A stretch of 64,000 bases of DNA from Escherichia coli O157:H7 (GTDB lineage Bacteria; Pseudomonadota; Gammaproteobacteria; Enterobacterales; Enterobacteriaceae). The stretch lies in NCBI RefSeq assembly GCF_013167455.1, contig NZ_CP038328.1. One strand, 5' to 3'. Both the position numbers and the translations under genes were made by a program. Shown here one piece after another: positions 23,116 to 53,640 of this stretch. The notes below the pieces were generated by a model that saw nothing but the letters and a program-made list of their open reading frames with translations, was not told the DNA's origin and made no database searches. Position 1 is the first letter of the stretch. Each line of letters opens with the position of its first letter.

Positions 23116-24438
23116 TTATTTGCTGCTGTCCGGGCCGCGTTCACCGGTTGCTACCGGATTTTTTGGATCGCTGCTCCATTCGTACCAGCCGCCGTCGTAA
23201 ACGGAGACGTTATTCCAGCCCATTGCTCGTGCGTACATAAAGGTTTCGGACGCGCGCCAGCCGGTGCCGCAGTAGAATGAAACTTGCTGATCTGGTTTGA
23301 TATTCCATGCTTTCCACATAGCGGTAATATCATCGGCGCTACGCATGGTGCCATCCGGATTATGGAAATCTTCCATATGCGTCGAGTCGCTACCAGCGTG
23401 TCCCCAACGTGCTCCGGCTATTTCACCTTTTGGTTTAATATAGCTGTAACCGCTGGTCGTACCGATAAATTCTGGCCACGAACGAATGCTCACCAGCGAT
23501 GCATCCTGGCGATGCAGCAGTCCACGGGCCTGTTCCATATCGAGCATCAACTGCGGTTGTGCCGGGATCTTCACGCCGAAATCCGGTTCCGCTTTCACTT
23601 TCGGTGGCGTACCGCGCTCAACGGGCAGACCCGCGTCGGACCAGGTTTGCCAGCCGCCATCCAGCAGGCGCACATCTTTCACGCCGGCATAAAGCATAAT
23701 CTGCGCCACACGCGCTGCAGCGTATACGTCACGCCCGTACAGAATGACCGTGGTGTCATGGCGAATGCCGTGTTTTGCCAGCATCGCTTTTAGTTGTTCA
23801 TCAGAAACTTTGTTCCACAGCGGTTCGCTTTCCACTTCGTTGGTATCGATGTAGTCAGCACCGGGAATATGGCTGATAAGGTAAAGCTTAGGAGCGCCCC
23901 TGGCCGCTTCAATGACTTTCCAGTCACCGGCAGGTTTCGCCGTAACCTCTTTACCTTGTTGCAGGTCGTGCAGCCATTGCGGATAAACCAGCTGCTCAAA
24001 GTGCGGCAGTTTTTGTAGACGGGAAGGTTCGCTTAGCGCGTCACTCAGAATGGAGATATGCGTAAAACCTGCTTTTTGCAGTCGCGTTTTGACGGCGTCG
24101 ACATCTTTGCCATTACCGTACAGCGCCACCGGGGCATCGGCTTTCAGGTTATGTTGCTTGATCCACGCGTTGAGCTGTTCGGTGCTCATTTTGTCAAGCC
24201 AGCTAGCAGAGAGGTTTAAGGCGGCAGGTTCATGACCAGAAGGGCCATTTAAGGTTTGTGGCCAGCCGTTATAAAACGCGCTGGAGCGAGTATCTATCGC
24301 TTTGCCATTTTGTTGTTGAAGCTGGTCAAGTGTAAGAGGCTTCGCCAGTTCAGCGGCCCACGAAGAAGCGCAAGCCAGCCCTAAAGCCATTGCCAGCGCG
24401 GTCATTTGAGAAACACGTTTCATCGAAAATCCCGACAT
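23116..24438 (-). CDS. ynjE: three-domain rhodanese (thiosulfate/mercaptopyruvate sulfurtransferase), periplasmic
   Basis: 440-aa ORF (435 aa from the second Met); signal peptide; active-site loop CGTGWRAS. Confidence 0.85.
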   Translation of the reverse strand: MSGFSMKRVSQMTALAMALGLACASSWAAELAKPLTLDQLQQQNGKAIDTRSSAFYNGWPQTLNGPSGHEPAALNLSASWLDKMSTEQLNAWIKQHNLKADAPVALYGNGKDVDAVKTRLQKAGFTHISILSDALSEPSRLQKLPHFEQLVYPQWLHDLQQGKEVTAKPAGDWKVIEAARGAPKLYLISHIPGADYIDTNEVESEPLWNKVSDEQLKAMLAKHGIRHDTTVILYGRDVYAAARVAQIMLYAGVKDVRLLDGGWQTWSDAGLPVERGTPPKVKAEPDFGVKIPAQPQLMLDMEQARGLLHRQDASLVSIRSWPEFIGTTSGYSYIKPKGEIAGARWGHAGSDSTHMEDFHNPDGTMRSADDITAMWKAWNIKPDQQVSFYCGTGWRASETFMYARAMGWNNVSVYDGGWYEWSSDPKNPVATGERGPDSSK

Positions 24439-24489
24439 TGTAGTTTTGAGTGCGCCATTCTGAACTGACGCATTGAGAAAAACTTTGCG

Positions 24490-25143
24490 TTATCGCAGTT
24501 TGTTGTAATTTTCTGACCACTGCGCCATATCCAGAACAGAACTATCAGCAGGAACATCCTGGAGATCGTGCGTTACCTGAACGACGGGGATCGCCAGTTC
24601 GCGAACTTCGCTGAACACCCACTGGCGAAAATTATCGCGCAGAGCCACATCAAGACGGCTGAATGGCTCATCCAGTAGCAACGCTTTTGGCTGAGCGAGA
24701 AGGGCGCGAAGCAGAGCAACGCGCGCTCGCTGACCGCCAGACAAAGTAGCAGGATCCTGATGGAAAGCTCCGTCAAGGCCTGAACGCTCAAGTGCATCAT
24801 TCACGGCATTACGTCGGGCATTCCCCTTAAGTGTCGCCGGTAGCGCCAGCAGTAAATTTTGCCCGACACTGAACTGGTCAAATAACAGTGCATCCTGAAA
24901 AAGAATGCCAATCTGACGCTGTGCGGTGGGTAGCATGTCAATCCGTTGCTCATTGAGCCATAGCTCACCTGTACAAGAAAACTGTCCGGCCAGTGCACCA
25001 ATCATCCATGAAAACAGAGTGGATTTTCCACAGCCAGACGGCCCCATTAACGTGACAATGTCACCTTTATCCACCGTAAAGTTAACGTTTGTCAGCAAGC
25101 AACTTTCTGGTAAACGTAGCGAAACATTTTTCACGCAGAGCAT
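24490..25143 (-). CDS. ynjD: ABC transporter ATP-binding protein
   Basis: 217 codons from MLCVKNVSLRL; Walker A GPSGCGKST, signature LSGGQRARV, Walker B LLLDE; start overlaps the ynjC stop. Confidence 0.85.
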   Translation of the reverse strand: MLCVKNVSLRLPESCLLTNVNFTVDKGDIVTLMGPSGCGKSTLFSWMIGALAGQFSCTGELWLNEQRIDMLPTAQRQIGILFQDALLFDQFSVGQNLLLALPATLKGNARRNAVNDALERSGLDGAFHQDPATLSGGQRARVALLRALLAQPKALLLDEPFSRLDVALRDNFRQWVFSEVRELAIPVVQVTHDLQDVPADSSVLDMAQWSENYNKLR

Positions 25144-26678
25144 TAGCGGAGTCCTTGTCTGACATAACCTACCCATTTTGCGACTAACGCGGTCAGGGCA
25201 AAAATAATAAGCGGTAATAGCAGTTGCCATAAAGCCAGGGCGGCGAGAATACCGTTGCTGCCGCCGCTGCTTAATGCCACCGCCTCAGTGGTGAGCGTCG
25301 GAAAACGCCCCGCGCCCAGCCACAGCGTCGGCATATACTGCGCAATACTGACTGAAAATCCCACCGCGAAGGCAATCAGCGTAGGGCGTAGCATAAGCGG
25401 ACATTTCACGTAAAAGAAGATTTTGGCCCGCGACCAGCCCAGTGTTTGTGCAATCAAAATTAACCGTGAATCAATGCGCTGCCAGGCGGGTTGCAGGATA
25501 AACAGCATCCACGGCATTACCCACAGCAGATGCCCCCAGACCACCGCCGTCCAGCTTCCATCCATGTTCAGCCATAGCGCCAGCGTGTACTGGCCCGCCA
25601 CCAGCGGCAGTGCCGGTAATAAAATCGGCAACCATAGCCACAACTGGCGACGCTGTGGCCCCCATTCCAGCCACAGCAGTAACAGGAGCAAAGCGATGAA
25701 TGTCGCCACCAGCCCCATTGTCAGGCTGTTGATGAGCGCTTCACTATTGATCGTCGACTGATCCGCGAGGATCGCCAGCAGAACCACACACAGCACACTG
25801 GTCAAGGGTAAAAAACTCGCCAGCGTAATGCCTGGCAATAAAGGCGTGGCAGGCTTACGAACGCCATCTACGCGGGGAATAGTACGCCGCCAGGTACACC
25901 ATAGCAGATAGCCCAGCAAAACGTAGGCGGCGAGTAACAACATCAGCAGCAGGCTGGCGAGTGCGCCTTTCGTTTGTTGATCGGCGTCGCCCTGAGTTAA
26001 CCACTGCCAGCTAATTACTGCCAGCGTCGGTGGATTACCTGGCCCAAGAATAATCGCCACATCTACGACCGACAGCGACCAGGCAACAATCGCCAGCATC
26101 GCCATTGCCAGCGCAGGCGCGACGGAGGGCAACAGCAGCCAGTTCAGGCATTGCCAGCGGCTGTAGCCCAGCGAATCCAGCACGATGACTTGCTGTAAAA
26201 GCCGTTTTTCACTCAATACCGCTGCTAAGATCCACAGCAGAAATGCGCTTTCTTTCACCGCCAGCGTGAAGCCCAGCCCAATACCCAATTTGTCCATTGG
26301 CGGAGTGAAATACGGGAAATAGTCATAAAGCAGCCCTCCGTCAGCAAAGAGCAGAAGGGCGCTGGTGGCAAAAGCCACATGGGGAATGGCGAGCAGCCAC
26401 GGCAGACGGGTGCACATACGCTGCCATTTCGGCCCAGGCCACAGCGCCACAATCACCAGTAGGGCAATCAACAACGCCCCGACCGCCGCGATGGTTGTCG
26501 ACACCAGCGTTGCCAGTAATGCCTGCGGTAACTGTGGATCGGCAAATAACGCCTGCCAGTGTGTCAACGACAAAGCAGGCGATATCAGCGTGAGAGCTGC
26601 CGGGATCAGCGGTGCATAAATCACCGCCACCATCGCCCACAGCAAAAAGATTAATGCGTACCGTAACGGTGTAGCCAT
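25143..26678 (-). CDS. ynjC: ABC transporter permease (fused two-domain)
   Basis: 511 codons from MATPLRYALIFLLW; about 12 hydrophobic spans. Confidence 0.85.
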   Translation of the reverse strand: MATPLRYALIFLLWAMVAVIYAPLIPAALTLISPALSLTHWQALFADPQLPQALLATLVSTTIAAVGALLIALLVIVALWPGPKWQRMCTRLPWLLAIPHVAFATSALLLFADGGLLYDYFPYFTPPMDKLGIGLGFTLAVKESAFLLWILAAVLSEKRLLQQVIVLDSLGYSRWQCLNWLLLPSVAPALAMAMLAIVAWSLSVVDVAIILGPGNPPTLAVISWQWLTQGDADQQTKGALASLLLMLLLAAYVLLGYLLWCTWRRTIPRVDGVRKPATPLLPGITLASFLPLTSVLCVVLLAILADQSTINSEALINSLTMGLVATFIALLLLLLWLEWGPQRRQLWLWLPILLPALPLVAGQYTLALWLNMDGSWTAVVWGHLLWVMPWMLFILQPAWQRIDSRLILIAQTLGWSRAKIFFYVKCPLMLRPTLIAFAVGFSVSIAQYMPTLWLGAGRFPTLTTEAVALSSGGSNGILAALALWQLLLPLIIFALTALVAKWVGYVRQGLR

Positions 26679-37964: not shown

Positions 37965-38180
37965 ATTAAGTTACCTTCTTATAAATTAATACAGATTAAT
38001 CCTGGTTATTTGCTTTATTTATCACCAGTCATCCGGTATAGTTCTTCATAATCTCTGCAAAATCATGGTGTTGTAATATTCTCTCATCACTCTCCATCAA
38101 ATTTTCTTTTTTTCTCCATAATTGGCGCAAAAGTGTTTTTTACACTTTCATTGTTTTACCGTTGCTCTGATTAATTGACG

Positions 38181-38874: not shown

Positions 38875-40375
<1,501 letters not shown>

Positions 40376-40388
40376 TGTTGACTCCGAA

Positions 40389-40408
40389 TGCTGGTTATCT
40401 ATCCAGTG
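40389..40408. promoter_or_regulatory. LexA (SOS) box CTG-N10-CAG upstream of cho
   Basis: GCTGGTTATCTATCCAGTG about 15 bp upstream of the cho start codon; cho is a known SOS gene. Confidence 0.55.
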
Positions 40409-40469
40409 TAACAGCCGGGAAGCGATTAAAAAAGAGGCGGGTCGATGACAAAGGTTACACCGTCTGACG

Positions 40470-40572
40470 TGCTACGCCTGTCAGGCCTATTCGACTCCTG
40501 CAATGTATTGAATTTGCATAGTTTTGTAGGTCGAATAAGGCGTTCACGCCGCATCCGGCGTGAACAAATTAC
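40470..40572. repeat. BIME/REP cluster between cho and nadE
   Basis: Palindromic units CGCCTGTCAGGCCTATTCGAC and TGTAGGTCGAATAAGGCGTTCACGCCGCATCCGGCGTGAACA. Confidence 0.65.
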
Positions 40573-40604
40573 TCTTTTTTGCACAATCCAATAGGTGCAA
40601 ATTA

Positions 40605-41432
40605 TTACTTTTTCCAGAAATCATCGAAAACGGTAATTGGCGGACGGCGTTTATGTTCGGTTTTCAGATACCAGTTCTCTATTGTTCTGGCGACCTGTTG
40701 AGGTACGTTTTTCCCTTCCAGATAGTCGTCGATATTGTCATAGGTCACGCCGAGTGCCACTTCATCTGGCAGAGAAGGGCGATCATCTTCCAGATCGGCC
40801 GTTGGCGCTTTCTTATAAAGGTGTTCCGGGCAACCTAATGCTGCCAGTAACTGTTTACCCTGACGTTTGTTGAGACGATACAGTGGATTAATGTCCGTAC
40901 CGCCGTCACCATATTTAGTGAAGAATCCGGTAATGGCTTCTGCTGCATGATCGGTGCCCACCACGACACCGCTGGTCATACCCGCAATGCTATATTGTGC
41001 TTTCATCCGCTCACGCGCTTTTTCATTGCCACGGACAAAATCGCTCAGTTCAATGCATGCTTCCCGCAATGCCTGCTCGCTAGCCAATACCGCGCCCTTG
41101 ATATTAACGGTTAATACGCGATCCGGTTGAATAAAGGCAATGGCATCCTGGCAATCTTGTTCGTCGGCCTGAACACCATAGGGCAGGCGTACGGCAATAA
41201 ATTGCAGTGATTCGTTGCCGGTTTCCTGGCGCAGCTCATTAATCGCCATCTGGCACAGCTTACCGGCAAGCGTGGAGTCCTGACCGCCGCTGATCCCGAG
41301 CACCAGTGATTTAATGAACGGATAAGTTTGCAGGTAGCTTTTCAGAAAATCGACACTACGACGAATTTCCTCTTCAGCATTAATCTGCGGTTTTGCGCCC
41401 AGCGCCTTTATTATTTGTTGTTGCAATGTCAT
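40605..41432 (-). CDS. nadE: NH3-dependent NAD+ synthetase
   Basis: 275-aa ORF with PP-loop SGGQDS. Confidence 0.9.
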
Positions 41433-41633
41433 TGAACCCCTCCAGACAGAAAAGACAAAACTTCCTTAAAGCTAACCCGTTGCTACTGAAACGACAAGCG
41501 ACAGCGGGCTGAATGGTGGTTAAAACGTCATACAGGAATCCTCTGAAAGCGGAGCCGTTTCGTTCATGGGCTTGAAAAAGCGCCCAATGTATTCCAGGCT
41601 TATCTAACACGCTGATAAACAATAGGACGGAAT

Positions 41634-44085: not shown

Positions 44086-44436
44086 ATGATGGATCTCGAT
44101 AATATTCCCGATACGCAAACGGAAGCTGAAGAGCTGGAAGAAGTGGTGATGGGGCTTATCATCAACTCCGGACAAGCGCGCAGCCTGGCGTATGCCGCAC
44201 TGAAACAGGCGAAGCAGGGCGATTTTGCCGCAGCAAAAGCCATGATGGATCAGTCACGGATGGCATTGAATGAAGCGCATCTGGTACAGACGAAACTGAT
44301 TGAAGGCGATGCGGGCGAAGGTAAGATGAAAGTGAGTCTGGTGCTGGTCCACGCTCAGGATCATTTAATGACGTCCATGCTTGCGCGTGAACTGATTACT
44401 GAATTAATTGAGCTTCATGAAAAACTGAAGGCATAA
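44086..44436 (+). CDS. chbA: PTS chitobiose-specific EIIA
   Basis: 116-aa ORF. Confidence 0.9.
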
Positions 44437-52887: not shown

Positions 52888-53478
52888 TTAGTATTCAACC
52901 TGATGCTTAATAAGCCGATGAAACTGGATCTGCAAGGTATTGATCATTTGCGATGACCAACGAACAGCGCTGTTTTCGGGTAATGAATGAGGCATCCATA
53001 CCGACCAGACAAATAATGCCATGCAGATAAAACGTTCCAGTTGGTTACCCTTTTGGGGAACCAGGATAGGCAAGCGGAAACGCCAGCGGCATGGCCAGAG
53101 CAGGGGAACACCGGCGGGTGTCAGCATATCGGCAAGTATGTGGCTTAAATAACCCAGCACCATTCCTTGTAGCGCATCAGCCGGAATGAACCAGCTTTCA
53201 GGAACCTTAAGGTAAAAGGTTGCCAGCAGCGCAAATACCGCCAGCAGACTGTGGGTAAAACCACGATGCCCAAAAGCGCGGGCGATCGGTTTTGATATCC
53301 ACTTTAATCGCTGCCCAAGAAACGACTTTGGGTGATCGATGTCCGGTAACAAACACGTCAGGATTGCGGAAGGGACAATATGCCACCAGTCACCCTGTGC
53401 CAGCACGGGCGTCAGCTCGGCATTTTTGGCAAATACCGCACAAGCAATAGAAAAGAGAAGGTGACCTTCCGCCGTCAT
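52888..53478 (-). CDS. ydjM: LexA-regulated inner-membrane protein
   Basis: 196 codons from MTAEGHLLFSIACAVFA; LexA box immediately upstream. Confidence 0.8.
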   Translation of the reverse strand: MTAEGHLLFSIACAVFAKNAELTPVLAQGDWWHIVPSAILTCLLPDIDHPKSFLGQRLKWISKPIARAFGHRGFTHSLLAVFALLATFYLKVPESWFIPADALQGMVLGYLSHILADMLTPAGVPLLWPCRWRFRLPILVPQKGNQLERFICMALFVWSVWMPHSLPENSAVRWSSQMINTLQIQFHRLIKHQVEY

Positions 53479-53502
53479 GATAAAACTCACTAAACTGTCG
53501 AT

Positions 53503-53522
53503 ACGTACAGTATAGGATTTTT
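53503..53522. promoter_or_regulatory. LexA (SOS) box CTGT-N8-ACAG upstream of ydjM
   Basis: AACTGTCGATACGTACAGTA, 25 bp upstream of the ydjM start; a second weaker palindrome follows at 53519-53540. Confidence 0.6.
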
Positions 53523-53640
53523 ATACAGTGCACGGAAGTGGTGACGGTGTAACTCTTTCTCTTAAATTGACGATTAATCCGTCAGTTGAATGCAAATTCA
53601 GATAAAGAACCAGGGGCAGCGTGATCACTGCCCCTGGTCA

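Follow-up and report, generated by a model that had tools for sequence, protein, structure and literature searches.

A conserved LexA (SOS) operator at the cho promoter of Escherichia coli O157:H7, as described for K-12 ydjQ/cho

The gene cho of Escherichia coli O157:H7 is preceded by a short palindrome, and the question raised by this locus is whether that palindrome is an operator for LexA and to what extent it governs cho expression. The site lies in a stretch of 64,000 nucleotides (the window), all of which was scanned for LexA boxes. An initial annotation had described it as a CTG-N10-CAG SOS operator about 15 bp upstream of the cho start that places the gene under direct SOS control in this strain. 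The site is almost certainly the LexA (SOS) operator of the cho promoter, as described for K-12 ydjQ/cho. This assignment agrees with its sequence, matrix score, and conservation, and with the fact that it overlaps both the -10 element and the published start site; the functional evidence is transferred from K-12 and Salmonella. By analogy with these organisms, lexA-dependent and damage-inducible expression of cho, known from the literature, would be expected here as well. The features of the locus are compiled in Table 1.

Table 1. Coordinates of the cho locus and of the ydjM reference sites in the window.
Feature	Position	Strand	Basis or remarks
cho (ydjQ), excinuclease Cho, 295 aa, GTG start 40375-40373	39488..40375	-	ORF and NF007833
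Shine-Dalgarno GGAG	40382..40385	-	6 nt upstream of GTG; columns 89-95% conserved
LexA box 20-mer CACTGGATAGATAACCAGCA, cho operator	40389..40408	-	matrix score, published 25-mer, 79/79 loci
Core palindrome CTGGATAGATAACCAG (CTG-N10-CAG)	40391..40406	-	pattern search; arms CTG and CAG invariant in 79/79 loci
Predicted start site of cho-only transcript, G, 10th base of the 20-mer	40399	-	K-12 1823491, PMC6131387
Putative extended -10 element TGtTACACT	40405..40413	-	TG 40413-40412, hexamer TACACT 40410-40405
Putative weak -35-like TTTTTA	40427..40432	-	3/6 matches, 16-nt spacer, within conserved T-run
nadE, upstream gene, same strand	40605..41432	-	NF001979, 444 bits
ydjM	52888..53478	-	downstream of boxes 53493-53530
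ydjM LexA box TACTGTACGTATCGACAGTT	53493..53512		matrix 15.2 bits
ydjM LexA box CACTGTATAAAAATCCTATA	53511..53530		matrix 12.0 bits

The identity of the downstream gene is clear. The NCBIfam equivalog model NF007833 (“excinuclease Cho”) matches the predicted protein with 579.6 bits against a cut-off of 367 and covers residues 1-287 of 295, and the gene is annotated as cho in the K-12 and O157 records. Models of UvrC match the protein only over their N-terminal part (model positions 3 to approximately 190, out of 574-698); the homology thus comprises only the N-terminal, 3'-incision half of UvrC, and the C-terminal 5'-incision half is absent. A search of the protein against Pfam-A returned no domain at E <= 0.001, and the domain assignment therefore rests on the NCBIfam models. 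Cho carries out 3' incision only and serves as a back-up of UvrC (summarized in PMC518961, citing Moolenaar et al., 2002). The gene is convergent with ves, which lies on the plus strand, and the 3' ends of the two overlap by 41 bp (39488-39528), as they do in K-12. Elsewhere in the window, chbA is intact (44086-44436); in the O157:H7 strain PV15-279, in which the 351-bp cho promoter query is identical to the window, chbA is split by an IS1203 insertion (positions 24067-25280 of locus L086); the window therefore stems from another O157 isolate or lineage.

On the plus strand the site reads TGCTGGTTATCTATCCAGTG, the reverse complement of which is the 20-mer CACTGGATAGATAACCAGCA on the cho strand. 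The 16-mer CTGGTTATCTATCCAG at 40391-40406 constitutes the CTG-N10-CAG core, and the sequence and coordinates given in the initial annotation are thus correct. The palindrome is imperfect and its spacer is A/T-rich, with A or T at 8 of the 10 bases; the SOS box consensus is TACTG(TA)5CAGTA, as quoted in PMC6590174. Between the CAG arm and the GTG start codon lie exactly 15 nt, CATTCGGAGTCAACA, which include the ribosome-binding GGAG, so that the previously estimated distance holds when counted between these two triplets. The 25-mer TACACTGGATAGATAACCAGCATTC that Table 4 of PMC3009722 gives for cho matches the window exactly.

The position of the site relative to the promoter was derived from a start site mapped in K-12. 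SMRT-Cappable-seq of this strain assigned the operon b1741 a start site at 1823491 on the forward strand of NC_000913.3 (PMC6131387, Supplementary Data 2), which is the central G of GGATA-G-ATAACC (K-12 locus L001) and corresponds to window position 40399. By sequence identity, transcription of cho in O157:H7 would begin at the same base. Relative to it, the -10 hexamer occupies positions -11 to -6, the TG dinucleotide -14/-13, and the LexA box about -9 to +11, and the leader has a length of 24 nt. The first 4 bp of the 20-mer are the last 4 bp of the -10 hexamer, and the K-12-mapped start site falls at the centre of the box. The motif TGnTAYACT is read as an extended -10 element from its location 6 nt upstream of the mapped start site. 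Its columns in 79 species loci (described below) are T 92%, G 100%, n, T 100%, A 100%, Y, A 100%, C 100%, and T 100%. The -35-like TTTTTA probably represents the corresponding upstream hexamer. A consensus scan of 40300-40700 returned neither a terminator nor a canonical sigma-70 promoter; for the latter it demands 4/6 matches to the -35 hexamer, and that of cho is too poor (3/6). The cho promoter is assigned on the strength of its extended -10 element together with the start site known from the literature. In the column counts of the 79 loci, the T-run that contains the -35-like hexamer shows 75-100% conservation at positions -27 to -22, counted from the C of CTG. Since in the alignment a G+C-rich hairpin precedes the T-run in many genera (seen in Leclercia, Kosakonia, Phytobacter, and Klebsiella), the T-run also resembles a nadE terminator tail.

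This arrangement suggests a simple mode of regulation. The cho promoter would be a compact one, consisting of an extended -10 element and a poor -35 element, a start at G 40399, and a 24-nt leader with GGAG and GTG. A LexA dimer bound to 40408-40389 would cover about -9 to +11 and occlude both the -10 element and the start site. Since the box lies over these two elements, LexA would block RNA polymerase, which is thus expected to be excluded from the promoter. Upon DNA damage, RecA-stimulated self-cleavage of LexA would free the promoter, and the Cho then produced would cut 3' of bulky lesions in UvrB-DNA complexes that are poorly handled by UvrC.

The quality of the site was assessed by means of a symmetrised log-odds matrix of 20 columns, built from 17 other E. 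coli LexA boxes (Table 4 in PMC3009722) with cho excluded. With this matrix the cho box obtained 19.5-19.6 bits, which is within the range of the experimentally supported training boxes (13.6-28.5 bits) and ranks first among all matrix hits in the window, so that the matrix scoring proposed in the initial annotation supports the site. Boxes of similar score are those of ruvA (19.3 bits) and uvrD (18.8 bits). The ruvAB box, CGCTGGATATCTATCCAGCA, shares with the cho box (19.3 versus 19.6 bits) the CTGG...CCAG variant of the consensus CTGT...ACAG, although gene and promoter context are different. The genes uvrA, uvrB, and uvrD resemble cho in having a single LexA box at an excision-repair promoter and in being modestly induced (2- to 5-fold). 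In random 64-kb sequences generated by a first-order Markov model, the mean best score was 11.4 bits, and a site scoring as high as the cho box occurred in only 4 of 200. Extrapolated from this frequency, roughly one or two sites of about 19.6 bits would be expected by chance in a genome of 5.5 Mb. The score alone is therefore suggestive, not decisive, and the argument for an operator is carried by position and conservation rather than by the score alone. The bare CTG-N10-CAG pattern is uninformative, with 27 matches in the window versus 12.7 +/- 3.2 in dinucleotide shuffles, an excess that probably stems from frequent CTG and CAG codons. Among the copies of the pattern in the window, only those at cho and ydjM score as LexA boxes. 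The second and third ranks of the matrix scan are two overlapping boxes upstream of ydjM, which are known SOS operators and lie 14 nt upstream of the ydjM ATG. As ydjM is another classic SOS gene, these boxes act as an internal positive control for the scan, and they can be used in this way for any LexA-box scan of the window. A weak site at 38011-38030 without the CTG arm was dismissed, as its 10.4 bits are below the mean best score of random windows.

Regulation of cho by LexA is documented in the literature. The gene (as ydjQ) is listed under “Known SOS box” in PMC6590174, an entry resting on Fernandez de Henestrosa (2000) and Courcelle et al. (2001), and is UV-induced according to PMC3009722. 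It is counted among the classic SOS genes in PMC11228462, with a heterology index of 7.5 (a home-made version of the index gave 8.0 for the cho box) and a 5.1-fold lexA dependence under AZT. With ciprofloxacin, a log2 fold change of cho of up to 1.59, about 3-fold, was reported (PMC11002266). For S. Typhimurium ydjQ, the heterology index is 6.69 and upregulation by nalidixic acid has been described (tabulated value 3.33). Under AZT itself, cho was not induced (0.77-fold), though most SOS genes were (PMC11228462), and its induction by UV amounted to 2.4-fold in exponential versus 36.6-fold in stationary phase, with recA induced equally in both (bioRxiv 10.64898/2026.06.22.733644). By analogy with these organisms, SOS control of cho thus appears to be real yet modest and to vary with conditions. 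Of the direct SOS control claimed at the outset, the existence of a LexA operator of cho stands, based on its score, promoter overlap, conservation, and the published work, whereas the control that it exerts is modest and condition-dependent.

The variable induction is one reason to consider an account in which the LexA box is genuine but a minor input, direct SOS control is overstated, and cho expression is set mainly by read-through from nadE, by growth-phase or stationary-phase factors, and by the weak GTG start. In addition to the lack of induction by AZT and the unequal UV response of the two growth phases, this account draws on the absence of detectable fluorescence from a Salmonella ydjQ-gfp fusion, on the conserved GTG start, which is kept in all 25 aligned representatives, and on a “novel” nadE-cho operon b1740|b1741 that was reported from start site 1822427 besides the cho-only transcript (PMC6131387). 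The 5.1-fold lexA dependence and the reported induction by UV, ciprofloxacin, and nalidixic acid speak against it, as does the invariance of the box arms over 79 species, which argues for strong selection on LexA binding. Such a minor role of LexA is plausible and is compatible with the operator explanation rather than exclusive of it, but as the prevailing state of affairs we consider it unlikely.

The K-12 start sites of the nadE-cho and cho-only transcripts (1822427 and 1823491) correspond to the region 40399-41463 of the window, so that some transcription of cho may initiate ahead of the LexA operator and escape promoter occlusion. The 206-nt spacer between nadE and cho contains further elements. 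A match to the Rfam family RF02751 (ES036 or CssrF sRNA; 42.9 bits versus a gathering score of 37.6) is located at 40483-40525 on the minus strand, immediately ahead of the cho promoter, and could represent a piece of the nadE 3' UTR. It is followed on the nadE side by a REP-type element (GTTCACGCCGGATGCGGCGTGAAC...CCTAC) at about 40526-40565 on the minus strand, which forms a strong hairpin between the two genes. The REP element is present in E. coli and is absent from the spacer in most of the other aligned genera. The predicted fold of the spacer has a z-score of -4.0. A role of the box in RNA structure was rejected, as this fold comprises the REP hairpin and other stems but gives the box no part, and transcripts from the cho promoter contain only the downstream half of the box. 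A connection of the box itself with Dcm methylation, considered in view of the preprint on UV induction, was likewise discarded, since there is no CCWGG inside the box.

Taken together, these features allow a tentative proposal, which as a whole we regard as possible and somewhat doubtful. The cho promoter might be an invariant fused unit across the Enterobacteriaceae, in which the extended -10 element TGnTAYACT and a LexA half-site overlap by 4 bp, the start lies at the dyad, and the start codon is always GTG, and this unit might be set on the T-tail of the nadE terminator. Leaky read-through would then provide a LexA-independent pool of Cho that depends on the growth state. If this were true, the read-through pool could explain the erratic induction of cho between inducers and growth phases.

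The attribution of the control to “this strain” in the initial annotation is misleading, as the box is a species-wide state and nothing about it is specific to the O157:H7 strain. Over the 351 bp surrounding the site, the window shows 100% identity to E. coli O157:H7 chromosomes, and the promoter region was found in 5425 of 5426 complete E. coli genomes, invariably between nadE and cho. One complete genome lacked the region, and two of the 5425 matches came from records with a plasmid label. A 30-mer centred on the box was matched exactly in 5069 of the 5425 genomes, K-12 included, with one mismatch in 353 and with two in 3. The 16-mer core was unchanged throughout an alignment that contained K-12 MG1655, UTI89, and three hits from among the most divergent; one aligned strain carried TACTGG, nearer to the consensus, in place of CACTGG, and the differences between the aligned strains were concentrated immediately outside the box. 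E. coli K-12 cho (ydjQ, b1741) has the identical 20-mer CACTGGATAGATAACCAGCA, the same distance to the GTG, and the same -10 element and Shine-Dalgarno sequence. The sole difference from the window near the site is a C in K-12 for the G at 40415, 7 nt upstream of the 20-mer, and the operator itself is free of differences. This position is -16 of the promoter and precedes the TG of the extended -10 element by 2 nt. The G found here is the O157-type base, with C in K-12, UTI89, and others, and the column varies across genera. A 50-mer that includes 40415 was matched at >=99% identity by 359 of the 5425 genomes.

Beyond the species, a scan of one genome per species yielded 80 loci with relatives of Cho (70-98% identity), 79 of which include upstream sequence. 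The sampled genera include Escherichia, Salmonella, Citrobacter, Klebsiella, Enterobacter, Kosakonia, Raoultella, Cedecea, and Trabulsiella. In all 79 Enterobacteriaceae species loci the box is conserved; the highest-scoring matrix hit within the 250 nt preceding cho reached 14.8-25.3 bits, versus best scores of -11.5 to 4.2 bits in a control stretch of 280 nt within cho. Its position was also constant in 79 of 79, at 11-16 nt from the start of the protein match or at 18-19 nt for matches beginning at residue 3. In Salmonella enterica, ydjQ has a single box at the equivalent position, which in the subspecies arizonae and diarizonae reads TACTGGATGAATAACCAGTT (22.3 bits); it differs from the E. 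coli box in the spacer and the outer bases and is nearer to the consensus (TACTG instead of CACTG). According to column counts anchored on the box in the 79 loci, the CTG and CAG arms show 100% invariance at a fixed 10-nt spacing, the core spacer positions 7, 8, 9, 11, and 13 vary freely, and the A at position 18 is 97% conserved. Judged from these aligned sequences, the combination of invariant arms and a variable spacer marks a protein-binding palindrome rather than neutral drift or an RNA element.

These column counts also bear on the question whether the conserved block is a promoter only (-10 element plus start region) or a binding site for some other protein, with an accidental likeness to a LexA box. 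The left arm overlaps the invariant -10 hexamer, and the promoter alone could explain why that arm is conserved. This explanation fails for the right arm, which is just as invariant: its CAG (core positions +14 to +16) is fully conserved and is followed by a nearly invariant T/C-A, with the A at position 18, and it is located at about +7 to +11 of the transcript, beyond such a promoter constraint. The fixed spacing between the arms in all loci and the published lexA-dependent expression (PMC11228462) contradict this possibility as well, and we regard it as very improbable. A chance match without any regulatory role, which could be invoked because the bare pattern occurs in the window at twice the shuffle expectation and such a score is expected once or twice per random genome, is effectively refuted by the conservation of the site with invariant arms and a variable spacer in 79 of 79 species and is further contradicted by the top score in the window, the location at a DNA-repair gene promoter over a mapped start site, and the published lexA dependence, leaving it a negligible probability.

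The operator described here is already known and represents the textbook LexA site of cho/ydjQ. Only three descriptive points are mildly new, namely the invariance of the arms over 79 species, the fusion of the operator to an extended -10 element with the start at the dyad, and the juxtaposition of the promoter with the nadE terminator tail. The footprint across genera is a tidy description of a known promoter-operator and does not constitute a new system. The finding has little importance beyond correct annotation: cho and its operator are intact in the O157:H7 genome, as they are in essentially all E. coli.
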